A DNA stretch of 64,000 bases from a virus (Duplodnaviria; Heunggongvirae; Uroviricota; Caudoviricetes), in IMG/VR virus record IMGVR_UViG_3300046000_008568, positions 94,501-158,500 of that record. One strand, 5' to 3'. Positions within the stretch are counted from its first letter, which is position 1; each line of letters opens with the position of its first letter. The notes below the pieces were generated by a model, which did not search any database, was not told where the DNA came from, and saw only the letters and a program-made list of their open reading frames with translations. The translations under genes and the position numbers were made by a program. Shown here piece after piece: positions 17,375-64,000 of this stretch.

Positions 17375-17382
17375 CAATAAAT

Positions 17383-17457: not shown

Positions 17458-17464
17458 CAAAAAT

Positions 17465-17538: not shown

Positions 17539-17544
17539 CAAAAT

Positions 17545-17629: not shown

Positions 17630-17920
17630 CTTTAAAAACCTGGTCCCTGTCCTCATAACGTGTTTAAGGAACACAGGAGTTGAATGTGCAATCGGGGCGG
17701 ATAGTGGTGGGACACTGATAAATAAAATCTTAAGCACAAAGATAAGTTAACGGGTTCTTATCAAACTACCGACTTGATCTAGGATCGAGAATATTTCATA
17801 AGTATTCCCAGACAAGAGCGTAACTTGTAGTCGGTACAATATGGTGTTCGAAGCTTTTTAGTGAAGCGCAAGACTGTGAATCTTGAGAAGATGGGGCGGT
17901 ACCGTTCTTACACCCAAAAT

Positions 17921-17994
17921 GCCCCTATGGTGAAACTGGTAAACACAACGGTTTTAAGCGCCGTAAGCTGTAGGTTCGAGTCCTACTGGGGGCA
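17921..17994 (+). tRNA. tRNA with anticodon TAA (Leu codon UUA) but a short variable arm
   Basis: Acceptor GCCCCTA/TGGGGGC; anticodon stem ACGGT/GCCGT with loop TTTAAGC; variable arm AAGCT (5 nt); T-arm GTAGG-TTCGAGT-CCTAC. Confidence 0.5.
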
Positions 17995-17999
17995 CAACT

Positions 18000-18071
18000 G
18001 GTCTTATAGTTTAATTGGAAAAACTTATCGCTACGAACGATAGAACGTAGGTTCGACTCCTACTAAGACCT
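18000..18071 (+). tRNA. tRNA-Arg (ACG)
   Basis: Acceptor GGTCTTA/TAAGACC; D-arm GTTT..AAAC; anticodon stem TATCG/CGATA with loop CTACGAA; T-arm GTAGG-TTCGACT-CCTAC. Confidence 0.65.
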
Positions 18072-18231
18072 CAAAATATAATTACAAAGCGTAGGTAAGA
18101 AGACGTGGAGAGACGTTGCGCAAGGGTACACACTAAGGATAAGTATTTATACTCAACTCTCTAATGGTGTGTGAAGCACTAAGAAATTAGAACCCAGATT
18201 CCTGATAAAACTTACTAATTATATTTTACTT

Positions 18232-18303
18232 GCCCGTATAGTTTAATTGGAAGAACTAAACGCTTCTAACGTTTCAGTCCTGGTTCAAGTCCAGGTATGG
18301 GTT
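18232..18303 (+). tRNA. tRNA-Arg (TCT)
   Basis: Anticodon stem AAACG/CGTTT with loop CTTCTAA; T-arm CCTGG-TTCAAGT-CCAGG; acceptor has two G-U pairs. Confidence 0.55.
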
Positions 18304-18310
18304 CAAAAAT

Positions 18311-18381
18311 GCGGGTCACAGACAAGGTGTCGGTACGGTCTCCAAAACTGCTACGGGTAAGTTCGATTCTTACGGCCTGCG
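18311..18381 (+). tRNA. tRNA-Trp-like (CCA), atypical D-arm
   Basis: Acceptor GCGGGTC/GGCCTGC with G-U pairs; T-arm GTAAG-TTCGATT-CTTAC; anticodon loop CTCCAAA; D-arm is irregular. Confidence 0.4.
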
Positions 18382-18447
18382 CAAAATTATTAATTATGAA
18401 AAAGAAATTCGATATGCATTAAGTTTATTAACTTAAAATGCATAAAA

Positions 18448-18630
18448 ATGAGAATCAAAAATCATACTCAGAAAGAGTATAAAAAAGAAAAAAGAAAACA
18501 ATCCAAAGATGGTGGAATGTGGTTTGAAGACTATTGGAGTAAATGTAAATCCGGAATATGGGCCTTCAAGTACAGAGAATACAGAACCTGGAAGTATAAC
18601 AGAAAAACACAATACAAACCTTTAAAATAA
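18448..18630 (+). CDS. small basic protein
   Basis: 60 aa, Lys/Arg/Tyr/Trp-rich; sits between the tRNA sub-arrays. Confidence 0.3.
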   Translation: MRIKNHTQKEYKKEKRKQSKDGGMWFEDYWSKCKSGIWAFKYREYRTWKYNRKTQYKPLK

Positions 18631-18636
18631 GTTATC

Positions 18637-19143
18637 ATGAGTAAGTACCAAAGAACACTGGTAATTGATTCAAGCTTTATGGCAAGATCCATTATCTCTA
18701 CCGAAAGAGCTTTCGTGATTTCGTATAAGGGTAATGCAGAAGTTATAGCTGAACATCCAGAAACATTCGGATTAGTAAATCCAAAACTAGAAATTTTTAA
18801 ACCTTCAATCATTAGGGTTTACAAATACGTAAAACAAAACATTCAAAAAGTTCCTCTAACAAGAGAGAATGTTTATCGAAGAGATAACTATGAATGTGTT
18901 TATTGTGGATCAAGTTATTTAAAATCACTAACTTTAGATCACGTTATTCCACAATCAAAAGGTGGAGCAAATGCTTGGGATAATTTAGTAACAGCATGTA
19001 GAAGTTGCAATTCACAAAAAGCAGATTTAACACTGGAGGAATATGGTAAAGAAATAGTAGAACCAAAAAGACCTCATTACTTAATGCTTATGAAACAACT
19101 AACATATGTTCCAAAAGAATGGGAAACATTTTTATTCTTTTAA
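18637..19143 (+). CDS. HNH homing-type endonuclease
   Basis: 168 aa; CVYCGSSY...LDHVIPQSKGG...WDNLVTACRSCNSQK is the classic HNH C-x2-C / H-N-H / C-x2-C pattern. Confidence 0.7.
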   Translation: MSKYQRTLVIDSSFMARSIISTERAFVISYKGNAEVIAEHPETFGLVNPKLEIFKPSIIRVYKYVKQNIQKVPLTRENVYRRDNYECVYCGSSYLKSLTLDHVIPQSKGGANAWDNLVTACRSCNSQKADLTLEEYGKEIVEPKRPHYLMLMKQLTYVPKEWETFLFF

Positions 19144-19190
19144 TTGGTTATTAAAAATATTGTTCGTATATTTAAGTATAATAAAGAGAT

Positions 19191-19376
19191 ATGAAAACCG
19201 AACAACAAATTAGAGAAAAGTACGAAGAGATGCTAAAGCATACAGAAGACTTGGATGATATGGTTCAAAACCCAAGTAAATATAGTGGTATTAATATTGA
19301 CAATATTCAAGATCATATAAAAGTAAGGGAAGAACAATATAAAATGAATACTCTGATTGAGTGGATTTTAAAATAA
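19191..19376 (+). CDS. hypothetical protein
   Basis: 61 aa ORF. Confidence 0.3.
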   Translation: MKTEQQIREKYEEMLKHTEDLDDMVQNPSKYSGINIDNIQDHIKVREEQYKMNTLIEWILK

Positions 19377-19453
19377 TAAATCACCTACTACATAACACGG
19401 CGCCAAATTAATTGTGACATGTACTGTCTGGAAGGTCAGGCTAGGTGATAAAT

Positions 19454-19523
19454 GGGCAGGATGGTTATGGAGACCGGCGGGATTGCAAACTCCGCAGAGT
19501 AAGTTCGATTCTTACCTTGCCCT
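19454..19523 (+). tRNA. tRNA-Cys (GCA)
   Basis: Acceptor GGGCAGG/CTTGCCC; anticodon loop TTGCAAA identical to canonical Cys; T-arm GTAAG-TTCGATT-CTTAC. Confidence 0.55.
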
Positions 19524-19618
19524 CATTTAAGGTTCGACCTTCTACCAAATGTGTTACACCCACAGATGGACATCGAGAGGGAGCTACCGATTGATAAGTG
19601 ACCGCACATGCGGTAAAT

Positions 19619-19692
19619 GCCCGAGTAGCCGAATTGGTATAGGCGCTAGACTTAGGATCTAGATTTTGCGAGTTCGAGTCTCGCCTTGGGTA
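19619..19692 (+). tRNA. tRNA with anticodon TAG (Leu codon CUA) but a short variable arm
   Basis: Anticodon stem CTAGA/TCTAG with loop CTTAGGA; variable arm ATTTT; T-arm GCGAG-TTCGAGT-CTCGC; acceptor GCCCGAG/CTTGGGT. Confidence 0.5.
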
Positions 19693-19851
19693 CGATAGTA
19701 GGACCGGGTTACCGGATATGGGTTCCTTAATTGGGCAGAAGGATTGGACGCCAAGCGCCTGGCCGCCTACAGATAAAATTAGAGTTAGCTTATAGTAAAG
19801 CAGCAGGGGCTAACCTGCAGAACGGATACGAAAACCGACTCTAATTTACTT

Positions 19852-19925
19852 GCTCTCGACGCACAAATGGTGGTGCACCGGATTTGTAACCCGGAATAGA
19901 GCCAGTTCGATCCTGGCCGAGAGCT
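19852..19925 (+). tRNA. tRNA-Thr (TGT)
   Basis: Acceptor GCTCTCG/CGAGAGC; D-arm GCAC..GTGC; anticodon loop TTTGTAA; T-arm GCCAG-TTCGATC-CTGGC. Confidence 0.6.
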
Positions 19926-19933
19926 CAATAATT

Positions 19934-20006
19934 GCGAATGTCGTATAACGGCTAATTATTCTTGACTTCCAATCAAGGGATGAGGGTTCGATTCCCTCCA
20001 TTCGCT
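19934..20006 (+). tRNA. tRNA-Gly (TCC)
   Basis: Acceptor GCGAATG/CATTCGC; anticodon stem CTTGA/TCAAG with loop CTTCCAA; T-arm GAGGG-TTCGATT-CCCTC. Confidence 0.65.
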
Positions 20007-20012
20007 CAAAAT

Positions 20013-20084
20013 GGCCCTATCGTCTATCGGTTAGGACACATGGTTTTCATCCATGAAAGTCGGGTTCGACTCCCGGTGGGGCTA
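20013..20084 (+). tRNA. tRNA-Glu (TTC)
   Basis: Anticodon stem CATGG/CCATG with loop TTTTCAT; T-arm TCGGG-TTCGACT-CCCGG. Confidence 0.6.
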
Positions 20085-20089
20085 CAATT

Positions 20090-20161
20090 GGGGCTATAGT
20101 ATAACGGCTATTACAATGGTTTTGCAAATCATAAATTGGAGTTCGATTCTCCATAGCTCCA
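20090..20161 (+). tRNA. tRNA-Ala (TGC)
   Basis: Acceptor GGGGCTA/TAGCTCC; anticodon stem ATGGT/ATCAT with loop TTTGCAA; T-arm TGGAG-TTCGATT-CTCCA. Confidence 0.6.
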
Positions 20162-20235
20162 CAAAATCGATCATAAGAGGATTGACCTATGAGGCTAATA
20201 GGTAAGTGATTGACAACTTGGAAAGACAGGTAACT

Positions 20236-20310
20236 GGTCCTATCGTTCAACGGCTAGGATGTAAGCTTGTCACGCTTATGATGAGGGTTCGATTCCCTCT
20301 AGGACCGCCA
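20236..20310 (+). tRNA. tRNA-Asp (GTC), with encoded 3' CCA
   Basis: Acceptor GGTCCTA/TAGGACC; anticodon stem TAAGC/GCTTA with loop TTGTCAC; T-arm GAGGG-TTCGATT-CCCTC; discriminator G followed by CCA. Confidence 0.65.
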
Positions 20311-20313
20311 TAT

Positions 20314-20387
20314 TGCGGGTTGGTAGAAGTTGGTATCTCGTGAGCCTCATAAGCTTAAGGTCGGGGGTTCGAGTCCCTCACCCGCTA
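20314..20387 (+). tRNA. tRNA-Met (CAT), with unpaired 1:72
   Basis: Anticodon stem TGAGC/GCTTA with loop CTCATAA; T-arm GGGGG-TTCGAGT-CCCTC; first acceptor base pair is a T-T mismatch. Confidence 0.5.
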
Positions 20388-20394
20388 CTAAATC

Positions 20395-20468
20395 GTCCTT
20401 TTAGCTCAGTTGGTCAGAGCAGCTCGCTCATAACGAGAAGGTCACAGGTTCGAGCCCTGTATAGGACA
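20395..20468 (+). tRNA. tRNA-Met or tRNA-Ile2 (CAT)
   Basis: D-arm GCTC-AGTTGGTCA-GAGC; anticodon loop CTCATAA; T-arm ACAGG-TTCGAGC-CCTGT. Confidence 0.55.
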
Positions 20469-20531
20469 CTAAATTTATTCAATATGAGGTCAATTCCTTC
20501 ATCTCCAATGTAGGTTAGCTATTGCTAACTT

Positions 20532-35128: not shown

Positions 35129-35197
35129 TGTTGTGAGGCGTATTGGTATACGCACCGATCGAAAGGGAGATAGTAGGTTCGATTCCTACCACAACAT
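35129..35197 (+). ncRNA. isolated degenerate tRNA-like element
   Basis: Acceptor TGTTGTG/CACAACA; D-arm GCGT-ATTGGTAT-ACGC; T-arm GTAGG-TTCGATT-CCTAC; no foldable anticodon arm; lies 15 kb from the tRNA array. Confidence 0.4.
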
Positions 35198-35214
35198 CAA
35201 ATAATTTAAAACAA

Positions 35215-50305: not shown

Positions 50306-50715
50306 TGGCTTATATAAGAAGTAATAGGGTTGACCCTAGGGATTTCCAAATCAATACTGCTATTGGGGTTGCATTACCTTTTAGTGCTCCTGGTGTCTTT
50401 AGTAGTGTATATTCTACTAGGGATCAAGTCAAATACAATCTTATAAACCTAATAATGACCTCTCAAGGAGAAAGAATTGAAAATCCTAATTTTGGTACAA
50501 TTCTAAAACAACAATTATTTGAGCAAATCTCAGAGCAAACATTTCCTATTATTAAAAGTAGTATAACCAATGCTGTTGAACAATATATGCCCGAAGTTGC
50601 TATAGATTCTATTGACATAGTACCATATGCCGATGATAATACTTTAGTAGTAACAATAAATTATAGAATACTTCTTTCTAATCAACCCGATATTATAACA
50701 ATTAACCTAGTATAA
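50305..50715 (+). CDS. baseplate wedge protein, gp25/GPW-like
   Basis: 136 aa; TSQGERIENPNFGTILKQQLFEQ fits the gp25-family core; ATGA overlap. Confidence 0.55.
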   Translation: MAYIRSNRVDPRDFQINTAIGVALPFSAPGVFSSVYSTRDQVKYNLINLIMTSQGERIENPNFGTILKQQLFEQISEQTFPIIKSSITNAVEQYMPEVAIDSIDIVPYADDNTLVVTINYRILLSNQPDIITINLV

Positions 50716-52526
50716 TGGCTCAAAACAAAAATATATCTTATCTAAATAAGAATTTTCTTCAATATAAAGCATCTCTTATTGAGTTTGCTAAAAATTACTT
50801 TCCGAACACATATACTGACTTTTCAGAAGCATCACCTGGTACTATGTTTATTGAAATGTCTTCATATGTTGGGGATGTTTTGTCATTTTATACAGATACC
50901 CAAATACAAGAAAATTTTGTATTAACGGCTAAAGAAAAGGAAAACTTATTGAATATGGCTTATTCTTTAGGATATCGTCCTAAGGCATCATATGCTTCTG
51001 TTACTACAGTTGATTTTTATCAAAGAGTTCCTATTTTAAATGGTGCTCCTAATTTAGATTACGCATTAATTATTCCTGAGAATACTCCTTTACAATCTAA
51101 TTCTTCTCAAACCAACTTTATAACTACTAAAAAGGTTGATTTTACTGACACGGGTTCGGTAAGTATTAGTTTGTATGATGGTAACAATTACTTATTTAAA
51201 AAATCAGTTAAAGCTATTTCTGCTACTATACAAACTGCAACTTTCTCATTTGGAGCTCCTGTAAAATTTAATTCTGTTGAAATAAATGATCCTAACTTTC
51301 TTCAAGTACTTCAAGTTACAGGAAGTGATGCTAGTCAGTGGTATGAAGTACCTTATTTAGCTCAATCTAATATAATAAATAGAACTACTAATACTGGTCC
51401 TTCACTTAACCAAGTACCTTATTTGCTAAGTTTATTAGAAACTCCTAATAGATATGTATCAAGAATTAGAACGGATGATATTATAGAATTACAATTTGGT
51501 TCAGGTATGTATGTAAACGACCCAGATAATGTACTTATTCCTACCCCAGATGCAATTCAATTAGGAATGGTTCCTTCTGTTGATACTTCTGATTTGATTA
51601 ATAACTACAATCAAGCTGCTGTATTTTACACTAAACAATATGGTACGGTGCCATCAAATATATCATTAACAGTTCAATATCTTTCAGGTGGTGGAGTTGG
51701 TGCTAACGTGACAGCAAATGATATTACTATAGTTGCTTCTAATGCTGGTATAACTGCTCTTAACCCAACATATACCAATGCGTCTCTCGCGACTTTACTC
51801 GTGAATAACGCAATACCTGCTACAGGTGGTAGAAGTGGTGATACAGTAGAAGAAATACGTTTAAACACGCTAAATGCATTTTCGGCACAATTAAGAGCTG
51901 TAAGTAAAGATGATTATATGAATCGTGCTTTAAGTATGCCTTCTGATTTTGGTACTATATCTAAAGTGTATGTTGAGCAAGCTTCTGCATTATCTGTTAA
52001 TACTGGTAATGATCCTTTAATTGATAATAATCCTTTAGCGTTATCAATGTATGTGTTGGCTTATGATGATAATAAAAAATTAGTTAACGCAACTACGGAT
52101 TTAAAAACTAACTTAAAAGAATATTTAGAACCATTTAGAATGGTTACAGATGCGGTTATTATTAAAGATGCCTATTATATTAATTTAGGTTTAAACTTTG
52201 ATATAACAGTTATTCCTGGGTTGAGTAATAATCAAATATTAACAGATTGTATAACTGCATTAGTTAACTATTTTGATATAGATAAATGGCAAATTAATCA
52301 ACCTATTATACTATCAAATATTAATGCTCTATTATTACAAATAAAAGGAGTACAATCATTAGTAAAACTTGAATTTACGAACAAATCCGGAGGTAATTAT
52401 TCTCCATATAGTTATGATGTTTCTGGTGCTTTTAGAAGTGGAGTTTTATATCCTTCTTTAGATCCGGCTACATTTGAAATAAGATACCCTGATTTAGACA
52501 TACAAGGTAGAGTTGTAACTTTTTAA
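50715..52526 (+). CDS. baseplate J/gp6-like protein
   Basis: 603 aa immediately after the gp25-like gene, with a TAATG overlap. Confidence 0.4.
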   Translation: MAQNKNISYLNKNFLQYKASLIEFAKNYFPNTYTDFSEASPGTMFIEMSSYVGDVLSFYTDTQIQENFVLTAKEKENLLNMAYSLGYRPKASYASVTTVDFYQRVPILNGAPNLDYALIIPENTPLQSNSSQTNFITTKKVDFTDTGSVSISLYDGNNYLFKKSVKAISATIQTATFSFGAPVKFNSVEINDPNFLQVLQVTGSDASQWYEVPYLAQSNIINRTTNTGPSLNQVPYLLSLLETPNRYVSRIRTDDIIELQFGSGMYVNDPDNVLIPTPDAIQLGMVPSVDTSDLINNYNQAAVFYTKQYGTVPSNISLTVQYLSGGGVGANVTANDITIVASNAGITALNPTYTNASLATLLVNNAIPATGGRSGDTVEEIRLNTLNAFSAQLRAVSKDDYMNRALSMPSDFGTISKVYVEQASALSVNTGNDPLIDNNPLALSMYVLAYDDNKKLVNATTDLKTNLKEYLEPFRMVTDAVIIKDAYYINLGLNFDITVIPGLSNNQILTDCITALVNYFDIDKWQINQPIILSNINALLLQIKGVQSLVKLEFTNKSGGNYSPYSYDVSGAFRSGVLYPSLDPATFEIRYPDLDIQGRVVTF

Positions 52527-54063: not shown

Positions 54064-55668
54064 ATGGCAGATAATATAAAAATAATAGGACAAGTTTTAG
54101 ATACAAGCCGAGTAAATCGTTATGATTTACAGGATGAACAACTACTTCTTCCTATTGTACAACAAGAAACCTTCGGGAAACCAGAAGACTATGTTGAATA
54201 CTTTGTATTTGATCTAGGAGGAAATGTATTAAATTCAAATTATAACTATAATTCATATAAATTACCTTCAAATTACGGTTATTCCCAAAGTTATCTCCCT
54301 ACACTAGAAATAGACCCAATCCAGGATATTGAAAATTTAGGATATGAATCCGGTGAAGTTACCTCTAGATATAATTTCTTTAGAAAAGTATCAGGAGAGC
54401 CTTTTAGTTCCCAACTCTTTATATCCCAAATATCATCAGACCGAACTGAATTAAGAGTAGGCTCTACTGAGTTAGATGATATTGCTTTAATTGATGTTGC
54501 TAGTAATTTTGCTGATAAGCAATTGGCTGTTCCTTATTATTATTACGTTATACTTAATTTTGGTAATAATAACCAAGTAGTAGCAGTTAATGTATTAAGT
54601 GAAGTAAATGCTTTAGGAGAAGCAAGTTTATTATTTAAATTATACGAAGCACTTCCATCTAATATTACATTAAAAGATAAATTTTGGATTGTAGAAGAGA
54701 TAGTTAATCCTTATATCTATGACCTTAGTTTAAGTAAAGTAATTACTCCTTTACCTCAACCTTATTTAAAAGGACCTAATTTTAATATTGATTTAGAATT
54801 TAAAGATGTAGTACCTACCCAATATAGCAATTTAAATCAATTAATTAACCCATCTGCTGGTCCTTCTTATCCAGTAACACCATCAATAAGTGTTACTCCT
54901 AGTGTAACTATTACTCCTAGTGTAACTGTTACCCCTAGTGTAACACCATCTATAACAGTCAGTGTTACTCCTAGTGTAACTATTACTCCTAGTGTAACAC
55001 CAACAATTTCAGTAAGTGTTACTCCTAGTGCATCACCAGGAAATTCAGTAAGTGCTACTCCTAGTATAACACCGTCAATATCGATTTCGTCTACTCCTAG
55101 TATAACACCGTCAATATCGATTTCGTCTACTCCAAGTGTAACACCGTCAATAACAATCAGTGCTACTCCTAGTGTAACGCCTACAATTTCAATTAGTGCA
55201 ACACCAAGTGTAACACCATCAATATCGATTTCGTCTACTCCTAGTATAACGCCTACAATTTCAATTAGTGCAACACCAAGTGTAACACCATCAATATCGA
55301 TTTCGTCTACTCCTAGTATAACACCTACAATAACAGTAAGTGTTACTCCTAGTATAACACCGTCTTCTTCTGAACCACCAGCAATATTGTTGAAAGAATT
55401 TTTAATATCAAATCTTTCAGATGAGTCTAATGCCTGTAGTCTTCCTATTTCAAACACAGTTTATGTCACTAATACTACTATTGATGGAGGAAATACTACT
55501 GCAACAACTACCTCAGAAATTTATACAAATCCAGCAGGTACAATAACTTTTACTGGTGATGGTGATTATTATGCTCTTTTTTGTGATGACTTAACCAATA
55601 CATTGACAACAAATCAAAGGATTACTCCAGTAGGTACAATAAATGGTAGTGTTGGTGTATGTCTTTAA
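54064..55668 (+). CDS. tail fibre/adhesin protein with a (T/S)PS(I/V)T linker array
   Basis: 534 aa; residues 270-440 consist of TPSVTPSITISATPSV repeats. Confidence 0.5.
   Translation: MADNIKIIGQVLDTSRVNRYDLQDEQLLLPIVQQETFGKPEDYVEYFVFDLGGNVLNSNYNYNSYKLPSNYGYSQSYLPTLEIDPIQDIENLGYESGEVTSRYNFFRKVSGEPFSSQLFISQISSDRTELRVGSTELDDIALIDVASNFADKQLAVPYYYYVILNFGNNNQVVAVNVLSEVNALGEASLLFKLYEALPSNITLKDKFWIVEEIVNPYIYDLSLSKVITPLPQPYLKGPNFNIDLEFKDVVPTQYSNLNQLINPSAGPSYPVTPSISVTPSVTITPSVTVTPSVTPSITVSVTPSVTITPSVTPTISVSVTPSASPGNSVSATPSITPSISISSTPSITPSISISSTPSVTPSITISATPSVTPTISISATPSVTPSISISSTPSITPTISISATPSVTPSISISSTPSITPTITVSVTPSITPSSSEPPAILLKEFLISNLSDESNACSLPISNTVYVTNTTIDGGNTTATTTSEIYTNPAGTITFTGDGDYYALFCDDLTNTLTTNQRITPVGTINGSVGVCL
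54880..55380 (+). repeat. in-frame tandem DNA repeats (about 60-nt units) encoding the Thr-Pro-Ser linker
   Basis: Near-identical 60-nt units at 55141-55200, 55201-55260 and 55261-55320; the same unit family recurs at 62880-63470. Confidence 0.6.
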
Positions 55669-55708: not shown

Positions 55709-58700
55709 ATGTCAATATACGCAACTTTAAACTCACTTACCAATCAAGAAATAAACATAAATATAGATTATAGTTTATTAAACGATTTTATTCATTATAG
55801 CTCAGCTGTAAGTAGAATAAATAATTTTATGTATAAGATTGGGGAGATTGAAGGGTATCAATATGAAATTACTACTTTTTCTCCTTTAACATCAAGTAAT
55901 GCTTCTTTAATAAACCAAATAAATAAAGCAAGTTCTAGTTTAAACACAACTATTGCGAATTTTGATGGGTTTGAATCTTATTTATATTTTAATTCTAGTT
56001 CATTAACCTCTTCTATTATACAATATACTTTAGATACGGGTTCATATTTAACATATAATATAGCTCCTTATCCTAAATCAAATCTTGTTCAACCATATAT
56101 TTTATATCCATCATCATCTGTTACTGTTACAAATTGGTATCAAGATGCCATTGAAGTAGCAAGTAATTATGATATAGAAAATAAAGACATATTAATTAAT
56201 ACTATACCTTCCTATATCCTAGATGACCCAGGTAATTATTTACCTTATATTGTTTTTGTTAATATGATAGGCCAATATTTCGATAACATTTGGGTTTACA
56301 TCGATAAAGTAACTGATGTATGGGATAATAATAATAATTTAAACGAAGGTATATCTCAAGATTTAGTATATGATTGGTTGAGATCATTTGGGATGAAATT
56401 ATATAATTCTCAGGGTGACCAAAGTGTATTGGATTATAATGTTGGTGGGTATAGTGGTAGTGTTGAATTTGCTCCAAATTGTCGTACTTACGAATTTACT
56501 AATATTACTAGTTCTCCTTTAACTCAAACTTGGATTAATTGTAATAATACTTTAGGAAGCGCAAATATTTCTGGTTTATTTGCAAGTGTACAAGCCTGTG
56601 CTATATCGGGAAGTTATTCTCCTTTAACCGCAGGTATAACAGTAACAGATTTAGGTCCTTGTTATGATGGAAATTATTCACCATCGAGTAGTTTCTTAAA
56701 TAATATTCCTAAAAAAGAATTAGTATTAGATACTTATAAAAGACTTTATCATAATTTACCTTATTTATTTAAAGGAAAAGGTGCCCATGGTGGTTTACAA
56801 GGACTAATTACATTATTTGGTATTACAGGTTCAATTCTTCCTATTAAAGAATATGGTGGAACAAATGATTATCAAGATTTAAAAGGATATTCACTAAACA
56901 AAATATCATTAGGATCAAATAATCTTACAGGAAGTATATTATCTCCTATAAAACGATTTGAAACTACTACAACATCATCTAGAGCAGTTAAAAGTCAAGA
57001 TTTACATTTTATTGATGTATCTTTTTCTCCTCAAACCCAAATTGATAGCGAAGTATCTGCTTCTATCACAGCAGTAAACCCTAATTGGGTCATTGATGAT
57101 TATATTGCCTACCCAGAAGCGCTTTATTTAGATACTTATCCTTCACTATCATTTCAACGAGATTATTGGTTTGGGCAAACCTTTACACACCCAAATGAAG
57201 GATTTGATTATGCTGGGTTTATTAGATTAATTCAATTCTTTGATAATTCATTATTTAAAATGGTCAAAGATTTTACTCCGGCTAGAGGTAATACTTGGAC
57301 TGGGGTATCTATTAAGTCACCTGTGTTAGAACGTCCTAAGGTACCGGAAGCTAAGCCTATATTTACTGCTTATCCTGATTTGGAAGGTGAAGTTACAGGG
57401 GCTGCTTTAATACCCGTTTATGATCCTTACTATTTTTATTTAGCAGGAGATAAAGAACCTTACTACAATGGTAATATTACAGGATCATTTATTGACACTT
57501 ATGCTCAATTTGAAGAATTAAACAGAAACCCATATTTAGTAAACAATACAGTTGGATATATCCCACCAGGATTTGTTAATGGTAATACAGATTTTATTTT
57601 AGACACTACAGCACCAGCATACGAAAATTTCTTTATTAATTCAGATTTTAATGCCTTACAAAATAATGAATTTGTAAGTTTAACTTCTAAATATAGAAAA
57701 AAATTAATTCCTATATTATCTACAGATTCTTTAGGAAGAGCATTTACTTCTTATTCAATAACAGGAGCTGTTCAACTTCAAGATTCATATTTAAGTGATA
57801 CATCATATGTTAATTCAAGATATAATGGTGTACAACTTTATAGCACTATTTATAATACATGGACTGAGGGAGACCGATCATATGGTCTTACCCCAGTAAT
57901 AAATTATAATACTAAAAAACTTGGTTTATTTACTGAGGTTGTAGATAGTGTATTGCCTTATAAAAGTAATGTTACTTTAAAATATTTAGTTGATGAAGAC
58001 GGAAAACTTACTGAATTGAATCAACGTAATAGAAACTGGTGTGAGGTTCAAAATACATTTGAAACTGGGGAAACATTAAATGTATCTTTATTTAATACAC
58101 AACAATATTCAAATCAATATGCTACTAATGGTAATAGAGTAATCCATGAAAGCGGGTATGCTTACTACCCAGTACTATATTTTTTTGGTGCTTCTGCACC
58201 AACTGCATCTCAATTTATACCTTTTTATAATCCAACAGGCCAATTAGGAGTATTAGGTACTAATTTCTTTAATAATCATCCCTCAGGAGGTAACTTTATT
58301 CCTGCTGCAAATTATACTTCTGCTAGTAATGGGGGGTCATATGAAGTATGGAATATGTTTAATATAACAGGTTCACCAGGAGCCCAACCAATTTCACTAT
58401 TTTCTCAAGTTAATTTCCCTACAAGTTATTTTGGTGATTCATTCTTTACAGGTTCTGGGCCTGGTGTTGTTGATGATAATGGATTAAGAGTTACTTCTTC
58501 ATATTATATAGTTCCAAGTACTGGAGTTTATGATTTTTCACATGATTTTGAAGTAACTGTAACTGGAGATGTTGGGGCTATTTTTACAGGTAGTATGGAA
58601 ATCTGGTTGAGTAGTTCAATAAATCAAACATTTTCTAAACAAATTTCTACTGAATTATCAGTTAAAATAGAGCCGGGAGTATGGAATGGATTATTAGGCA

Positions 58701-59782
58701 ATCAAAACTGGCTGGCATCCTCTCAAAATTCTTACATTGTAGATACTGGGGAGTTTGTTACTATATTTAACCAGTATGTTATAAATGAATATGGTGGAAT
58801 ATCTGCAACTTGTGGACAATCTCCTGATAGTACATTTCTAGTAAACCCTTCAGATACTATATATAGAAAATATAATGCATATTTTGATAGAGATTACCAA
58901 GCTGTACTTTGGGGTACTTTTTGGATAGCTGATGATCTTAATCCTCTTCAAAATGATAATTGGAGAACATGTAAAAAATATAAAGACTTATCTCTATGTT
59001 CTGGAAACCCAACATCAACATTAAGATTTACAAATAACTGGCTACTTGATACTAATCAATCTGCTACATTTGGGGTTGGAGATATTGTATCTTTTAGATT
59101 TTTATGCCAAACTACATCCTCAGGGGCTAATAAAATAGAATCAGCATCGTTAAGTTCATTTATTGAAAGTACAGCATATACTCCTTTTTGGGTATTTTCT
59201 GGGACTAGTTATTCTCCCGGAGTATTAAAAGTTACTCCTACTAATAATGCTCAAGTAGCAACAGCTTCTATTTGTACAGATCAACCCAATAATTCATTTG
59301 TTTTAGGACAGAATTTATCTAATTTTTATTCCCCAGATTATTTTTTCAATCCATTAGCTACAAACTACTCAGCATCATATGCTACCTTATATCAAGAATA
59401 TGGTTATATTGCTTATCCTTTTCAATTAGAATCTTATGATAAAATATTAATTCAAATTGAAGGAGCTAATGGTTTTCTATTTGAATATAATATAGATCAA
59501 GTAGCTATTGATGGTAATGGTAATCTTAATATATTAATAAAGGAAGATATAAATGGGTATTTTAGAGACAAAACATGTAATACATTTTATAAAATAGTAT
59601 TTTTAAAACGAGTCCCTGATGAAACTAGTATTTTTATTAATCTAATAAAACCACCAGGAAAAACATCTTATGGATTTATAATTCCCGAAAATATATCCTT
59701 AGATGTAATGAATAACATAGATAACATTACTAAAAACGTTAAATTACAGTTATTAGATGCTGGAAGTAATGTAATTGTATAA
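55709..59782 (+). CDS. large tail fibre/baseplate structural protein
   Basis: 1357 aa, Asn/Ser/Thr/Tyr-rich. Confidence 0.5.
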   Translation: MSIYATLNSLTNQEININIDYSLLNDFIHYSSAVSRINNFMYKIGEIEGYQYEITTFSPLTSSNASLINQINKASSSLNTTIANFDGFESYLYFNSSSLTSSIIQYTLDTGSYLTYNIAPYPKSNLVQPYILYPSSSVTVTNWYQDAIEVASNYDIENKDILINTIPSYILDDPGNYLPYIVFVNMIGQYFDNIWVYIDKVTDVWDNNNNLNEGISQDLVYDWLRSFGMKLYNSQGDQSVLDYNVGGYSGSVEFAPNCRTYEFTNITSSPLTQTWINCNNTLGSANISGLFASVQACAISGSYSPLTAGITVTDLGPCYDGNYSPSSSFLNNIPKKELVLDTYKRLYHNLPYLFKGKGAHGGLQGLITLFGITGSILPIKEYGGTNDYQDLKGYSLNKISLGSNNLTGSILSPIKRFETTTTSSRAVKSQDLHFIDVSFSPQTQIDSEVSASITAVNPNWVIDDYIAYPEALYLDTYPSLSFQRDYWFGQTFTHPNEGFDYAGFIRLIQFFDNSLFKMVKDFTPARGNTWTGVSIKSPVLERPKVPEAKPIFTAYPDLEGEVTGAALIPVYDPYYFYLAGDKEPYYNGNITGSFIDTYAQFEELNRNPYLVNNTVGYIPPGFVNGNTDFILDTTAPAYENFFINSDFNALQNNEFVSLTSKYRKKLIPILSTDSLGRAFTSYSITGAVQLQDSYLSDTSYVNSRYNGVQLYSTIYNTWTEGDRSYGLTPVINYNTKKLGLFTEVVDSVLPYKSNVTLKYLVDEDGKLTELNQRNRNWCEVQNTFETGETLNVSLFNTQQYSNQYATNGNRVIHESGYAYYPVLYFFGASAPTASQFIPFYNPTGQLGVLGTNFFNNHPSGGNFIPAANYTSASNGGSYEVWNMFNITGSPGAQPISLFSQVNFPTSYFGDSFFTGSGPGVVDDNGLRVTSSYYIVPSTGVYDFSHDFEVTVTGDVGAIFTGSMEIWLSSSINQTFSKQISTELSVKIEPGVWNGLLGNQNWLASSQNSYIVDTGEFVTIFNQYVINEYGGISATCGQSPDSTFLVNPSDTIYRKYNAYFDRDYQAVLWGTFWIADDLNPLQNDNWRTCKKYKDLSLCSGNPTSTLRFTNNWLLDTNQSATFGVGDIVSFRFLCQTTSSGANKIESASLSSFIESTAYTPFWVFSGTSYSPGVLKVTPTNNAQVATASICTDQPNNSFVLGQNLSNFYSPDYFFNPLATNYSASYATLYQEYGYIAYPFQLESYDKILIQIEGANGFLFEYNIDQVAIDGNGNLNILIKEDINGYFRDKTCNTFYKIVFLKRVPDETSIFINLIKPPGKTSYGFIIPENISLDVMNNIDNITKNVKLQLLDAGSNVIV

Positions 59783-59827: not shown

Positions 59828-60490
59828 ATGGCTATATTAAATAACAATACTGTAACAATTGATGCAGTTTTAACAGCTAAAGGTAGAGAATTGCTAGCTA
59901 GAAACGATGGTTCTTTTAGAATTACACAATTCTCTTTGGCAGACGACGAAGTGGATTATACATTATATAATCCATCGCAACCATCAGGATCTGCGTTTTA
60001 CGGACAAGCAATTGAAGCTATGCCTGTAATGGAAGCATTCCCAGATGATACGCAAATTATGATTTATAAATTAGTAACTTTACCTAGAGGTACAGCTAAA
60101 TTACCTGTAATTAATGTTGGATACAATAGTATCTCATTAAAACAAGGAGCTACATTAACCATTACTCCTCAAACATTAAATTACTTAGGTGCTACTAGTA
60201 CATTTGAAGCTAATGGGTACGCTATTACAATTGCTGATGTTAGATTCTTATCTACATTCTCGGCAACAGGCGTCCCAGGCTCAACAACTACACCAACAGG
60301 TGTTACGTCAACAGTAGGTTCACAATTAAGCCAAACTATTATAGGTACTTCGTTTACATTAACTGGTACTACAATTAATACATTATTTGGTTCTGGTTTA
60401 AATCAAATTACAACTACTTTAACAGTACTAGGTAGAGATTCAGGAGCCAGAATTACAATTCCAGTAACAATCACAAAATCAAATTCATAA
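59828..60490 (+). CDS. virion structural protein
   Basis: 220 aa. Confidence 0.4.
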   Translation: MAILNNNTVTIDAVLTAKGRELLARNDGSFRITQFSLADDEVDYTLYNPSQPSGSAFYGQAIEAMPVMEAFPDDTQIMIYKLVTLPRGTAKLPVINVGYNSISLKQGATLTITPQTLNYLGATSTFEANGYAITIADVRFLSTFSATGVPGSTTTPTGVTSTVGSQLSQTIIGTSFTLTGTTINTLFGSGLNQITTTLTVLGRDSGARITIPVTITKSNS

Positions 60491-60496
60491 TAATAT

Positions 60497-61519
60497 ATGT
60501 CATTCGTAAGATATAACCCAGAAGACTCAGTAGTAAGTACAGAAACCGTAGTAAGACCAATGTGGAGTGGTGACCTTAACACATTAACTACTTTTTATAC
60601 TTCTAGTGTAATTACTAGCTCATTTTATATAAATGTATATAGTGCATATCCCGGAGCCCTAAATGCTACTACAGAATCGGTTCAAATGGCCATTCAATAT
60701 GGAAACAAATATGGTAGTGGTTCATCCTATATAAACCCCGCTGCAACTACTATAATGCCGGATGGTTCATCTTTAACTACTTCTAGAGTTGTTTACGGAC
60801 AATATAGAACATTATTGTTAGGAACAGAAAGTGGAAGTTTTGATTTTGGAAATGATAATCCAAATGATATTTATATTATAAATGTTGCTAGAAATAGATA
60901 TAAAGAACACCTTCAACCGGGTTCTATGACATTAAATCTAAAAAATGGTGCCGCAACAATTGTTTTAACAGATAATAGTCAAATAACATCTACAACTAAC
61001 TACACAACTGCTGGTACTTTATATTATACTTTAATTTCAGGTAGTGCCGGGGCTGCGGCTACGGCGGCTAATTCAGCCTCTATTTATGGTTATATGTATC
61101 CGGACAGTGATATTATTATTCTTAATCCAACAGCATTAAGCAAATCAATACCAGATGGTGGTTTAGCTTTTACTCCAACCGTATCCTCTCCGGGGACTAA
61201 TAATAGCATTCAACAAGGATTTTATCAAATAATGTCCGCTAGTGCTAATTTTGCTCTTCAATCAGCTGAAAATGTATCTGCTCATTATTTCTTTACAAGA
61301 GTAAAAAATCAAGATTTTAACTATACCACTAATCCTTCTATTATAGATGCTAATGGTAATTTAATTTATACTACATTAATTAATAATCCACAAACGTTTA
61401 TAACAACTGTTGGATTATATAATGATACTAATGAATTGTTAGCCGTAGCTAAATTAAGTAGACCGTTAGTAAAAGACTTTACTAAAGAAGCCCTTATAAA
61501 AGTAAAATTAGACTATTAA
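60497..61519 (+). CDS. virion structural protein
   Basis: 340 aa. Confidence 0.4.
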   Translation: MSFVRYNPEDSVVSTETVVRPMWSGDLNTLTTFYTSSVITSSFYINVYSAYPGALNATTESVQMAIQYGNKYGSGSSYINPAATTIMPDGSSLTTSRVVYGQYRTLLLGTESGSFDFGNDNPNDIYIINVARNRYKEHLQPGSMTLNLKNGAATIVLTDNSQITSTTNYTTAGTLYYTLISGSAGAAATAANSASIYGYMYPDSDIIILNPTALSKSIPDGGLAFTPTVSSPGTNNSIQQGFYQIMSASANFALQSAENVSAHYFFTRVKNQDFNYTTNPSIIDANGNLIYTTLINNPQTFITTVGLYNDTNELLAVAKLSRPLVKDFTKEALIKVKLDY

Positions 61520-61540: not shown

Positions 61541-64000
61541 ATGGGATCATTCAAACAGTTAAAATCATCAGATGTTATAACAGTACCCGTTATAGCCAAT
61601 AAAACTTGGAATTTTAACTACTGTCCTATTCCATCTACTGATCCTTATATTTCAGTGTATAATGGGACTAACTATACTAATTCTTTTAATCCGGGTAATG
61701 AGCCTTCGACTAATACACATTACGATAGGTTAACCTATAGACAAATTAATCAGTTATTTTATCATCAATACTCAGGAAGTCTAAATACGGCTTCCTTGGC
61801 TTCTTCTATTCATTATTTATCTGCTAGCAGTCAACATCCATCGGCTTCGTTTTTTAATTTTAATAACGATCCTGCTTTTATTTCATATTTTCCTACAGGA
61901 GCAAATGAAACTATTAGGGTAATTCAGATATCTCCGGATGCTTATGGTAATAAGGTTTTACCATATTCATTTCAAATGTCATCGTCTCAATATAGTTTTT
62001 ATGATGATGGTAAAGGAAATATTTATGATAATTTTAGTGGTCCTACTCCTATTTTTGTAGGTAATATATTTTATCCTGAAGGTACTATTGTTATTACAAG
62101 TCAAACTTATCAGAATGTATTTGTTTTACCGGCAGTTGCTTATGATGATGTTTACACTATAGTAAGAAATGATTATCTAAATCCTGCTACATTTTCTTTT
62201 TATCCATTAATAAATGATGATTTACGAGGAAATACACTAGTAAATAATTCAATTCAAATATTTGGAGGTAATGCTAGTTTCTTTAGTACGGGTTCAAATA
62301 ATTCCGTGTCTTTATCTTTCTCTGGTCTAGGCATAGGAACATATCAGACATTTTATACATTTTTTACTACAGGCTCTTATTGTGCTCCCTTAATGAGTAG
62401 CACAGCTAGTATTACTGTTAATGTAACTGATCCTGATTGTGAATTTGAAATTAAAATTATAATTCCTCCCCCATATCCACCTAGTTTATCTCCTAGCCCA
62501 ACAGTTACACCATCAATAACAGTAACTCCATCAATTACCGTTACTCCTAGCTTAACACCTAGTAGAACAATAACACCAACAGTTACACCATCAATAACAG
62601 CAACGCCAACAGTAACACCAACACCATCTCCTTCAACACCATTTGAATTTAGAGATGCTAAAGGATGTTGTGATGGATCGTATCAAGTAATATCTATACC
62701 GGCAGCCTATGGTGGTGGGTGGTATGTTACCACTACTGGTCAATGTTATAGTGTAGGAGATGATCCAACACCAGGGCCAGCAACTATTATTTGGGATGGA
62801 GGAACATTATATGCTGATTGTGCTGCTTGTACAAGTGTTAATTTATGTCCTTCACCATCACCAACACCTACAAAATCAGCTACTCCAAGTGTAACGCCAT
62901 CTATAACAGTGTCTCCTAGTGTAACACCATCTAAAACACCAAGTGTAACGCCTACAATATCAATTAGTAGAACACCTAGTGTAACTCCGTCTTCTTCGCC
63001 ACCGGTTGATTGTAATTGTTATGAATATGAATTTGAAGCACTTTCAGATGGGTATGTTTGTTATACAGATTGTATTAGTGGAGATAATATTTGTGATTTC
63101 TATGCTGCTGGAACTTATACATCTAATTGTGTAAGGGCAAATACTTTAGGTGGAAATATTTCAATTGAAACCGCTACGCTTTGTGGTAATTGGTGTGTTT
63201 CCTCAAGTCCAACTCCAACACCAACTAAGACTCAAACACCATCAATTTCAATAACACCTACTATTTCGATTAGTAGAACACCTAGTGTAACGCCTACAAT
63301 TAGTATAACTCCGTCTATATCAATTAGTATAACACCGACAGTAACGCCAACAATTTCAATTAGTGCTACTCCTAGTATAACACCGTCAATAACAATCAGT
63401 GCTACTCCAAGTGTAACGCCTACAATTTCAATTAGTGCTACTCCTAGTGTAACGCCTTCTCCTTCTACAACTACTATATCCTCTCCAACCTCACTAAATA
63501 TAGGAGAAACCAGTAACCAAGCTTGTTCTGGAACTGGGGGAGCAGCACTTGTTTGTTTTGTTGGTGGTATTGATTTATGTACTGCTACTTCATTAAGAGA
63601 TAGTGATGGAGTTATTTGTTTCTTAACTCCTCCTCAAGATGGGTGGTATTCAGATGGGTTTGATGTTCGATATTGGGACGGGTCAGCATTTACAACAAGT
63701 TGTACTGTATGTTTATCACCATCACCATCACCAACACCAACACCAACAAAAACTGTCACACCAACCCCTAGTATAACACCATCTCCATCAGGGCCAGCAT
63801 GTGAAATTATTACATTTAACTTTGGTGTAACTAAAACTGGGGCTTGCTCAGAATTTGCAGACTTTGCTGATTTTGGTTTATTAGATGGAGATTTTTTATG
63901 TAGTGGAGGAATGACTTTACTAAATAGTAATGGAGTCAGTTGTTTGGGGGTTGCTAGCTCTATTTGGATAGCTACTCTTGGTGGTGGTTCGGGTGCTGAT
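61541..64000 (+). CDS. large modular adhesin/fibre protein, 3' end outside window
   Basis: Frame open from the ATG at 61541 to the window end (820 codons); not in the ORF track because it has no stop; four Cys-rich modules separated by PTPT/TPSITPS linkers. Confidence 0.5.
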   Translation, partial: MGSFKQLKSSDVITVPVIANKTWNFNYCPIPSTDPYISVYNGTNYTNSFNPGNEPSTNTHYDRLTYRQINQLFYHQYSGSLNTASLASSIHYLSASSQHPSASFFNFNNDPAFISYFPTGANETIRVIQISPDAYGNKVLPYSFQMSSSQYSFYDDGKGNIYDNFSGPTPIFVGNIFYPEGTIVITSQTYQNVFVLPAVAYDDVYTIVRNDYLNPATFSFYPLINDDLRGNTLVNNSIQIFGGNASFFSTGSNNSVSLSFSGLGIGTYQTFYTFFTTGSYCAPLMSSTASITVNVTDPDCEFEIKIIIPPPYPPSLSPSPTVTPSITVTPSITVTPSLTPSRTITPTVTPSITATPTVTPTPSPSTPFEFRDAKGCCDGSYQVISIPAAYGGGWYVTTTGQCYSVGDDPTPGPATIIWDGGTLYADCAACTSVNLCPSPSPTPTKSATPSVTPSITVSPSVTPSKTPSVTPTISISRTPSVTPSSSPPVDCNCYEYEFEALSDGYVCYTDCISGDNICDFYAAGTYTSNCVRANTLGGNISIETATLCGNWCVSSSPTPTPTKTQTPSISITPTISISRTPSVTPTISITPSISISITPTVTPTISISATPSITPSITISATPSVTPTISISATPSVTPSPSTTTISSPTSLNIGETSNQACSGTGGAALVCFVGGIDLCTATSLRDSDGVICFLTPPQDGWYSDGFDVRYWDGSAFTTSCTVCLSPSPSPTPTPTKTVTPTPSITPSPSGPACEIITFNFGVTKTGACSEFADFADFGLLDGDFLCSGGMTLLNSNGVSCLGVASSIWIATLGGGSGAD
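62460..63480 (+). repeat. Thr-Pro-Ser linker repeats homologous at DNA level to those at 54880-55380
   Basis: AGTGTAACGCCTACAATTTCAATTAGTGCTACTCCTAGT units shared with the gene at 54064-55668. Confidence 0.55.

Follow-up and report, generated by a model that had tools for sequence, protein, structure and literature searches.

What does the long reading frame that runs off the 3′ end of this window (the whole 64,000-nt stretch of phage DNA that was analysed) encode, and is it a gene at all? Translation of the + strand from the ATG at 61541 met no stop across 820 codons, and at 33-37% GC a frame of this length is not attributable to chance. The start lies 22 nt past the stop of the preceding gene. 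The frame was missing from the program-made ORF list solely because it leaves the window before its stop, just as the initial annotation had recognised. Extension beyond position 64000, which that annotation had recommended, was achieved by a protein-based scan of relatives, from which the missing C-terminus was obtained; an exact 44-nt string from the window end had found no match in viral or metagenome contigs. In relatives with a last module of 90% identity, the protein stops exactly 16 residues past the final codon of the window (...GGGSGVD-VRFWNGSAFGTCQTCV, then the stop), and a JGI contig carrying an identical 340-aa neighbour at equal spacing calls an 836-aa product, which gives the length of the complete protein. 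A frameshift or stop in the true assembly had been named as a reason to give up the initial proposal, and neither was present in the related assemblies. The reading as an assembly artefact or pseudogene was dropped, since dozens of intact orthologs occur in independent assemblies. The frame is a genuine gene of a large uncultured phage.

A composition-based split of the protein into modules and linkers revealed a conserved N-terminal anchor of about 300 aa, followed by four Cys-rich modules with four linkers rich in Ser, Thr and Pro, with additional Ile and Val (Table 1). The four Cys-rich domains on PT/TPS linkers that had been described at first were all recovered, with 6, 8, 6 and 6 Cys and four P/T/S-rich linkers, and the strings quoted for them are present without exception, namely CCDGSYQVISIP...CAAC (aa 376-430), CNCYEYEF...CGNWC, PSPSPTPT and TPSITPS.

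Table 1. Coordinates of the target gene, its parts and its neighbours in the window
Feature	Position	Strand	Residues	Remarks
Baseplate wedge (gp6/J-like) protein	50715..52526	+		phrog_219, phrog_10646; 42% identity to immuto baseplate wedge protein; marks structural module
Second protein of the target's design	54064..55668	+	534 aa	Residues 1-269 of a large baseplate-cluster protein, ~168-aa TPS(I/V) linker, 97-aa Cys module, stop
Rest of that large baseplate-cluster protein	55709..59782	+	1357 aa	Restarts after the inserted cassette
Two conserved structural neighbours	59828..61519	+	220 aa and 340 aa	Directly upstream of target
Target ORF	61541..64000	+	820 codons in window	16 further codons and stop past window edge
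Conserved N-terminal anchor region	61541..62131	+	1-197	DDG.GN...(V/I)GN(I)xY..G motif invariant
Cadherin-like/Ig-like beta-sandwich	62132..62440	+	about 198-300	PLINDD motif
Linker L1	62462..62638	+	308-366	S/T/P-rich with I/V; 18-nt repeat
Module M1	62639..62851	+	367-437	6 Cys, CC...C...CxxC...C; proximal family
Linker L2	62852..63001	+	438-487	P/T/S-rich
Module M2	63002..63202	+	488-554	8 Cys (CNCYEYEF...CGNWC, aa 491-552); rare family
Linker L3	63203..63478	+	555-646	12-residue periodic TPSVTPTISISA-type repeat; 36/72-nt tandem repeats
Module M3	63479..63721	+	647-727	6 Cys; compact alpha/beta domain of M3/M4 family
Linker L4	63722..63796	+	728-752	Classical PSPSPTPTPT type
Module M4	63797..64000	+	753-820 in window, complete at 836	Distal tip; M3 family

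The initial annotation had left the non-repetitive conserved N-terminal domain of about 300 aa undescribed. Its columns D155, D156, N160, G174, N175 and Y178 are invariant, and the anchor is kept in at least 340 IMG/VR loci. It is nearly missing from cellular life (2 matches in 185,579 cellular species genomes), a distribution that points to lytic phages. The whole protein, the anchor, M1 and M3 found no match by tblastn in 50,697 deposited phage genomes (INPHARED), so that the protein is not carried by any cultured relative there. The AF2 model was poor for aa 1-116, and the monomer model of the anchor resembled no baseplate or fibre fold already known. The same model did contain a beta-sandwich like that of cadherin EC domains. 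This likeness to cadherin-like and bacterial Ig-like adhesin domains holds at the fold level only: a Pfam search with aa 1-311 returned no match even at E≤10, so that membership in a cadherin or Big family found no support, and the target has a single copy of the domain, with no Pfam cadherin or Big match at threshold.

The genomic position of the gene was examined for signs of its role. It lies within the baseplate/tail-fibre cluster, downstream of the gp6/J-like wedge gene, in a region syntenic with genes 158-165 of Flavobacterium phage immuto. The positional counterpart of the target is immuto_165, which has a local sequence match to the N-terminal region, and the genes annotated in immuto as tail fibre and tail spikes come directly after it. 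The 340-aa neighbour shares 46% identity with immuto_164, and the order and sizes of the 220-aa and 340-aa neighbours are kept in relatives L003 and L004 and in the JGI contig. L003 has an inserted gene for a conventional fibre with SYSHAEG repeats directly after the counterpart of the target. The source is a large myophage distantly related to immuto. SD-like motifs precede just 1 of 53 genes, which indicates a Bacteroidota-type host, and we regard Bacteroidota as the probable hosts. The first 197 residues presumably dock on the baseplate. Our favoured reading, which we hold to be reasonably probable, is that the product is an adhesion fibre attached to the virion tail or baseplate of a large lytic myophage, one that probably infects Bacteroidota.

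We investigated how the modules are related to each other with profile HMMs built without the target. These resolved three unrelated families, M1, M2, and M3 together with M4, with E values of 4e-32 for M1, 1.7e-20 for M3, and 1.6e-5 for the copy of M4 truncated by the window. A Cys spacing conserved across the modules, as had been claimed, is therefore not what the protein has. The M1 family has five invariant Cys in its alignment, and its module stands N-terminal to M3/M4-type modules in all 8 of 8 carriers. Relatives of M2 are restricted to P0006, P0033 and L084-L087; iterative HMM searches did not support as further members a Cys-patterned stretch of the 1357-aa neighbour or the CNC module of P0013. 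Of the 6 Cys of the whole M4, 4 lie within the window; the module shares 90% identity with the full-length terminal module of L084 and L087. The M3/M4 family is the most C-terminal element in 12 of 13 carriers. A word-indexed profile search with the 81-aa M3 module gave short proteins only, and module alignments A4 and A5 were too diverse for pattern-based genome scans; an exhaustive scan of representatives, used instead, found the M3/M4 family in 502 representative clusters. Its modules sit on many different uncharacterised phage proteins, a single one of which can have as many as 21 matching stretches, and also on P0195, a tail protein with a crAss-like muzzle N-terminus. Pfam and PHROGs searches of large or diverse carriers returned mostly nothing, or spurious low-complexity matches (P0199). 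The modules are real domains.

The modules had been called CBM-like, a label that the searches did not bear out. Pfam, run per module and on the whole protein with E values up to 10 allowed, matched no CBM family and no other family except a sub-threshold DUF2510; NCBIfam gave no CBM family in the target, and no sequence relatives of the modules were found in the PDB. M3 was modelled with confidence (pLDDT 96), and its predicted fold matched no solved CBM or other PDB fold. Neither a family-profile match nor a known CBM or lectin fold, the marks of the CBM class, was thus obtained, and the converse outcome that the initial annotation had set against itself, a match of the modules to non-adhesin folds, did not arise either, since M3 had no match of any kind among known folds. 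M3 does contain GWYSDGFDVRYWDGSAFT, which is similar to the DUF2510 motif GWYPDP...RYWDG..W. DUF2510 (PF10708) scored 17.2 bits with the whole protein and 18.8 bits with M3 alone, against a gathering threshold of 24, and membership was rejected because the scores are below threshold and the motif amounts to one beta-hairpin of an 80-aa module.

PT-type linkers with small Cys modules recall the way in which fungal and bacterial glycoside hydrolases are laid out, and the product could on this ground be taken for a carbohydrate-active protein, secreted or released, that carries CBMs on PT linkers in the manner of cellulases or cellulosomes. We consider this highly improbable. Pfam and NCBIfam revealed no catalytic domain, cohesin or dockerin in the target, no CBM family appeared at E≤10, and inspection of the N-terminus (MGSFKQLKSSDVITVPV...) showed no signal peptide; M3 does not resemble solved CBMs, the gene is part of an operon of phage structural genes, and cellular genomes contain almost no members of the family. 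The architecture of secreted polysaccharide-degrading enzymes, once invoked for this protein, is an analogy only.

The pattern of Cys residues bears on what the modules might do. The M3/M4 family has just two invariant Cys, and the additional ones come in pairs: 26 of 27 aligned members have 2, 4 or 6 Cys, and the number is even in 170 of 207 domains. In the M3/M4 family, this pairing points to disulfides and away from a fixed metal site, and the Cys of the modules probably form disulfides. A metal-binding role, with modules that serve structure, assembly or chaperoning, for example as oligomerisation nodes, and bind no ligand, would account for the invariant CC, C and CxxC cysteines of M1. 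It would also agree with the fact that the cytoplasm in which phage proteins fold is reducing, so that disulfides should not form there before lysis. We judge it improbable nonetheless, given the two invariant and otherwise paired Cys of M3/M4 and the wholesale replacement of modules, which fits a conserved assembly role poorly.

Such replacement, with the linkers as its boundaries, was evident when orthologs were compared. The target and L084 share 94% identity in the anchor, 64% in M1, 54% in M2 and 90% in M4, and M3 is swapped for an unrelated module. The C-terminus of orthologs ranges from nothing up to six modules, with a beta-propeller in P0023, and 29 of the 74 complete orthologs consist of the anchor only, at 310-340 aa. 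A conserved N-terminal attachment region is therefore followed by a variable, exchangeable C-terminal region. Together with the position in the cluster, this lends indirect support to host recognition, one half of the receptor-binding role assigned to the protein at the outset; glycan recognition, the other half, gained no support, there being no CBM match, and the ligand may be a glycan, a protein or something else. Because 29 of 74 orthologs do without it, the string is not needed to assemble the virion, and it may be an accessory to the primary receptor-binding protein and not that protein itself.

An optional string would also suit a virion decoration whose targets are polymers of the environment (polysaccharides of algae or particles, mucus-like matrices), one that raises the encounter rate as Ig-like Hoc domains do and plays no part in host specificity. 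The Ig/cadherin-like domain, the spread of the modules over many phage proteins, with as many as 21 stretches in one, and the suitability of multivalent weak binding for matrix adherence agree with this. The gene is found, however, in the baseplate/fibre cluster and not in the head module, rapid module exchange with mosaic divergence resembles a host-range arms race, and the modules also occur on the crAss-like muzzle protein of the tail, all of which makes a decoration unlikely in our estimation.

Are the linkers a flexible tether, as the favoured reading proposes? The four linkers measure 25-92 aa each. Linker composition is 71% S/T/P and 21% I/V, with 7 charged residues in 404, and the linkers are encoded by 18/36/72-nt tandem repeats, of which TRF located one at 63301-63457 within L3. 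They are periodic at 6 and 12 residues (lag-12 autocorrelation of 0.5-0.7 for I/V and 0.46-0.78 for P), and in this phage I/V alternates strictly with S/T. The sole PHROG match of the target, phrog_15511 (aa 429-489), falls almost wholly inside linker L2 and belongs to a family without known function; it was set aside as functional evidence. Alternation of I/V with a 12-residue period could reflect an ordered shaft instead of a flexible tether. The protein would then be a rigid conventional fibre with unusual repeats, its shaft beta-structured and probably trimeric, and the Cys modules would be knobs or nodes upon it. Strict alternation and 6-/12-residue periodicity are typical of beta-strand repeats, and the genomic slot is that of a fibre. 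Among orthologs, linker lengths vary from 23 to 436 aa in those of IMG/VR (26-399 aa among the first protein matches), the I/V fraction from 0 to 0.26 with a median of 0.05, and many linkers are plain (T/S)P or TPTPTATPNP repeats without a hydrophobic pattern. An ordered hydrophobic core is therefore not required family-wide, and a proline content of 17-36% together with almost no charge is what extended, non-globular spacers typically show. A rigid shaft seems to us a minor possibility.

The window contains a second protein of the same design, the 534-aa product of the ORF at 54064, whose module falls in the M3/M4 family by HMM. The 1357-aa product that follows aligns to residues 271-1535 of a single 1540-aa ORF in L003, and to immuto_161. 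A linker-plus-module cassette has thus split a larger baseplate-cluster gene. The sole difference between the 534-aa protein and P0061 is a 36-aa linker deletion (3 x 36 nt), and 88 nt of L3 share 93% identity with the linker DNA of the ORF at 54064. As a tentative generalisation, linker-plus-module units might be plug-in cassettes for tail proteins of aquatic phages that probably infect Bacteroidota. The repeat DNA would be both a length-tunable tether and the shared homology by which cassettes move between genes and genomes, even splitting a baseplate gene, and the system would supply a pool of small, structurally uncharacterised binding domains stabilised by disulfides. This would constitute a distinct, recombination-based diversification of host range, parallel to DGRs and classical fibre-tip swapping.

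We propose that the adhesion fibre works as follows. The N-terminus of about 300 aa, comprising the docking region and the cadherin-like beta-sandwich, would fix the protein to the baseplate. From it would hang a flexible tether of four nearly uncharged S/T/P-rich spacers, in total about 230-250 aa, which by our own estimate might reach several tens of nm if fully extended. The tether would display four small modules of three families, probably disulfide-stabilised, with the M3/M4 type at the distal tip. The modules would most likely touch structures of the host surface weakly, multivalently and reversibly, and so widen the capture radius before other fibres or spikes commit. Specificity may evolve through exchange of whole modules at the linkers, and reach through expansion and contraction of tandem repeats in the linker DNA.

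Very little work exists on how the abundant large phages of aquatic Bacteroidota recognise their hosts, and the present family escapes annotation, having no Pfam or NCBIfam match and a sole PHROG match without known function. If the proposal is true, the anchor serves to identify the locus of host recognition in hundreds of genomes of uncultured phages, and the adhesin has a simple genetic means of tuning its reach and specificity, by repeat-length change and linker-bounded module exchange. Small modules that fold confidently and have no solved relatives would then be good candidates both for compact affinity scaffolds and for binding folds not described before.

A literature search for PT-repeat phage tail proteins found no direct precedent among the papers covered, and the comparison was made with systems that share parts of the design. 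Glycoside hydrolases with PT/ST linkers and cellulosomal proteins have the same bead-on-a-string layout with Pro/Thr/Ser linkers, but the target differs from them in its phage structural context, in linkers with 21% I/V, and in having no catalytic domain, signal peptide or CBM. Like phage receptor-binding proteins and tail fibres, it is encoded in a baseplate/fibre cluster adjoining other fibres, with a conserved N-terminus and a C-terminus that is hypervariable and exchanged horizontally. Classical fibres are built as beta-structured trimers; the target, by contrast, judged from the monomer model and sequence, looks like a monomeric string in which neither a trimeric beta-helix nor a coiled-coil or knob fold was detected; it bears several small unrelated modules on long low-complexity S/T/P spacers, and the string is missing in about 40% of orthologs. 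Tail proteins of lactococcal and streptococcal siphophages (evolved Dit, Tal, NPS) carry auxiliary carbohydrate-binding modules (PMC6669499, PMC7533335). Common to these and to the window, including the 534-aa protein, are extra adhesion modules grafted on conserved tail or baseplate proteins and varying between close relatives. In the evolved Dit, Tal and NPS, recognisable CBM folds are inserted within proteins of Gram-positive siphophages, while the modules of the target match no CBM or solved fold, are appended via long repeat linkers, and belong to a myophage of probable Bacteroidota hosts. In antireceptors of S. thermophilus phages, as described in the part of PMC5601072 that cites Duplessis and Moineau 2001, collagen-like repeats part the domains around the host-range region VR2. 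Within the scope of that description, these proteins and the target share low-complexity repeats between distinct domains, at the boundaries of variable regions; the antireceptor repeats form a Gly-X-Y triple helix, whereas the spacers of the target are of the S/T/P(+I/V) type, more numerous and longer, and the modules that they separate are small and Cys-rich.

Translation of the plus strand from 61541 to the end of the window gave 820 sense codons and no stop, the ATG lying 22 nt past the stop of the upstream gene for a 340-aa protein. The initial annotation had pointed to an unlisted modular ORF here, with four Cys modules and linkers between them; this observation holds, every string it quoted is found in the translation, and the mechanical ORF list lacks the ORF solely because the frame is still open at the window's edge. 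The product was split by composition into an N-terminal region, termed the anchor, and a string of modules (M1 to M4) on linkers, as listed in the table below. A 10.9-kb JGI contig shares with the window the upstream product sizes (1357, 220 and 340 aa) and the 22-nt spacing; its 340-aa product is identical to that of the window, and an 836-aa product is called at the target position. In four independent metagenome contigs (L084-L087), the terminal module is 90% identical to M4, and the proteins stop 16 residues beyond the final codon of the window (...GGGSGVD-VRFWNGSAFGTCQTCV*). Judged from these contigs, the full-length target is 836 aa, with 16 codons missing from the window and M4 otherwise complete.

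Features of the target and of the surrounding window, with segment identities to the 954-aa protein of L084 (target segments from a composition-based split)
Feature	Window position (strand)	Residues	Identity to L084
18 tRNA genes	16600-20469
tRNA-Ser(cga)	35129-35198
Baseplate wedge protein	50715-52526
534-aa protein	54064-55668
Linker of 534-aa protein, counterpart of P0061 linker	54850-55380
Antisense ORF	54867-55457 (-)	196 aa
Shared linker DNA, first copy	55127-55214
1357-aa protein	55709-59782
Cys-patterned stretch of 1357-aa protein	56470-56670	~257-318
Target ORF	61541-64000 (+)
Anchor, non-repetitive		1-307	94%
M1, Cys-containing		367-437	64%
M2, Cys-containing		488-554	54%
M3, Cys-containing		647-727	unrelated ~90-aa module instead
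M4, Cys-containing		753-820+	90%
P/T/S-rich linkers (n=4)		between modules
Shared linker DNA, second copy	63366-63453

The genomic context of the target is that of a baseplate cluster. The gp6/J-like wedge protein (phrog_219) shares 42% identity with that of the Flavobacterium myophage vB_FspM_immuto, a 160-kb genome, and 41% with a protein encoded by Microcystis phage Mel-JY01. Synteny with immuto extends downstream of the wedge gene: the 1357-aa protein matches immuto_161, the 340-aa neighbour is 46% identical to immuto_164, and the anchor and its positional counterpart immuto_165 have in common the motif DDG(K/E)GN(I/L)Y...VGN(I/V)(F/I)YP.G.I(V/I)IT. Immediately after immuto_165 come genes annotated as tail fibre and tail spikes. 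An AF2 model of the anchor from a 20-sequence alignment was of moderate confidence only (mean pLDDT 63), poor over residues 1-116 and at 72-90 over residues ~120-300; the first ~195 residues, highly conserved and poorly modelled, would fit a segment that adopts its fold on contact with partners in the baseplate. The target is best read as an adhesion fibre, flexible and multi-module, that is anchored in the baseplate. Its genomic context, the evolutionary pattern and the existence of the domains are observed; a place in the virion, binding, the ligand and flexibility are inferred.

The window genes lie nearly all on one strand, with a GC content of about 31%. A Shine-Dalgarno-like motif was present at 1 of 53 gene starts, rarer than expected from the 11.7% at random positions, and the upstream regions are 54% A. 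Few Shine-Dalgarno motifs and A-rich upstream regions are the signature of Bacteroidota-type translation initiation, so the host is likely a member of the Bacteroidota. The block of 18 tRNA genes, which spans less than 4 kb, falls where the GC content climbs locally to 37-40%; the tRNA-Ser(cga) gene stands apart from it.

Database searches returned 454 homologs of the target (E<=1e-3), and the anchor is encoded at at least 340 IMG/VR loci, several of them on 160-187 kb contigs. Cellular genomes are essentially free of the family (2 matches among 185,579 species representatives), and 50,697 deposited phage genomes gave no match. One of the two cellular matches is a contig binned in a Candidatus Saccharibacteria MAG (L082; CAYVDC010000001.1, 184.7 kb), which encodes an anchor protein of 35% identity and is probably a mis-binned genome of the target's phage group. 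The first ~300 residues (MGSFK...DPDCEFEI) are common to all members; past them, the members diverge wholly in linker length and in which modules they carry, how many and in what order. Among 74 complete orthologs, 29 consist of the anchor only, as does immuto_165, and measure about 310-340 aa; the other 45 have one linker or more (23-436 aa), with a maximum of six modules per protein (locus L033); in the related protein P0023, a DUF5122-type beta-propeller takes the place of the string. The closest long relative, contig L003, has a short ortholog of 411 aa, in which the anchor and a linker end in an 18-aa tail. The next gene in L003 (9248-11176) is an extra 642-aa fibre gene with about 30 SYSHAEG-type repeats, which is not at the corresponding position in the related contig L004 or the JGI contig.

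The four modules had been taken for repeats of a single type in which the Cys spacing is conserved, but profile HMM assignments place them in three unrelated families. With profiles built without the target, M3 and M4 fall in one family (independent E-values 1.7e-20 and 1.6e-5) and M1 in a second (E 4e-32); M2 matches neither profile and has few relatives (P0006, P0033 and L084-L087). The labels "CBM-like" and "glycan" were supported by none of the tests run: a Pfam search of the modules up to E<=10 returned none save a hairpin motif in M3 that resembles DUF2510 but stays below threshold (18.8 bits, cut-off 24 bits), an NCBIfam search returned nothing, and PDB sequence searches with the modules were negative. 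The analogy with cellulase-type enzymes amounts to a resemblance in layout, and a secreted carbohydrate-active protein is a very improbable identity for the target.

When 1.84 billion representatives were scanned exhaustively with HMMER (E<=1e-3), the M3/M4-type module was found in 502 clusters, often repeated within one protein (P0140 has as many as 21 matched stretches); one carrier has an N-terminus of the crAss-like muzzle-protein type. Three proteins of ~130 aa (P0129, P0131 and P0133) are minimal carriers without a linker, in which a conserved N-terminal peptide, MALP..GPISISQIKTELG...LRALSAAAGKSTPDAMSEFYGY, is joined directly to the module. Only two cysteines are invariant in the M3/M4 family, near opposite ends, and the extra ones are paired (2, 4 or 6 Cys in 26 of 27 aligned members; an even count in 170 of 207 domains), as disulfides would lead one to expect. 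In M1, five cysteines are invariant, and a CxxC is among them; that the modules are metal-binding structural units seems improbable. In anchor-bearing proteins, the M3/M4-type module is outermost at the C-terminus in 12 of 13 carriers, and M1-type modules are N-terminal to it in 8 of 8. The earlier proposal of a receptor-binding role for the target is reasonable, and the modules would then carry the binding; a matrix-binding decoration, as opposed to a host-specific adhesin, is rather unlikely.

The linkers are composed of 26% S, 24% T, 21% P, 12% I and 9% V, with 7 charged residues in 404, and show a strong 12-residue period (TPSVTPSISISA-like). The alternating I/V could belong to an ordered trimeric shaft, which we consider unlikely: the I/V fraction of ortholog linkers ranges from 0 to 0.26 (median 0.05), and many orthologs have plain TP/SP repeats. 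The alternation is not a family feature, and these data speak for a generic extended spacer more than for a shaft with ordered hydrophobic packing. At the DNA level the linkers are imperfect tandem repeats of 18/36/72/108 nt. Both globular parts of P0061 (498 aa, 9 member sequences) are identical to those of the 534-aa protein of the window, the sole difference being a linker 36 aa shorter in P0061 (108 nt, or three 36-nt units); tether length may evolve fast through repeat slippage. An 88-nt stretch at 93% identity is common to the linker DNA of the 534-aa protein and that of the target, together with an exact match of 31 nt. Since this exceeds synonymous-codon controls (mean 18, maximum 28 nt in 200 trials), the DNA shares ancestry beyond peptide constraint, which points to gene conversion or a common origin; it possibly offers homology for recombination. 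Antisense ORFs of 196 aa in the window and 308 aa in L004 (8837-9763, minus strand) lie entirely within linker repeats and are almost certainly artefacts of repeat composition.

Comparison with the close relative L084 revealed a mosaic of identities across segments, with linkers of 61/64/64/144 aa against about 59/50/92/25 aa in the target. From the N-terminus, P0006 matches 38% of the target at 93% identity, a part that is essentially the anchor; it then passes straight into an M2-type module and a different terminal module. Both layouts indicate exchanges bounded by linkers, and module content may evolve fast through recombination. The 534-aa protein is built like the target. In relatives, the slot of this ORF and the following one holds a single protein (1540 aa in L003, 1615 aa in L004, 1265 aa for immuto_161), of which the 534-aa protein matches residues 1-269 (88% identity) and the 1357-aa protein residues 271-1535. 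The insert comprises a TPS(I/V) linker (~168 aa), a 97-aa Cys module and a stop, and translation restarts 40 nt on. A cassette therefore seems to have entered at residue ~270 and broken the gene in two, an apparent fission of a baseplate-cluster protein. Against the M3/M4 profile, the 97-aa module gives a weak match (E 1.1e-3). These arrangements suggest that linker-module units act as transferable cassettes among tail proteins. Within the 1357-aa protein, a Cys-patterned stretch (NCRTYEFTN...INCNN...ACAISG...GPC) sits between two blocks conserved with immuto_161 and resembles an embedded small module; it has no significant relationship to M2.

A literature search, incomplete in coverage, found no paper describing proteins of this kind. 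Among known systems the nearest are classical phage receptor-binding proteins, which likewise combine a conserved anchor with a swappable tip; the tail proteins of lactococcal and streptococcal siphophages, which carry grafted auxiliary CBMs (PMC6669499, PMC7533335); and S. thermophilus antireceptors, in which collagen-like repeats separate domains (PMC5601072). The target differs from them in that its spacers are S/T/P tandem repeats, its several small Cys-rich modules belong to families without annotation, at least one module is confidently predicted by modelling to adopt a fold without a solved relative, and its string is optional.
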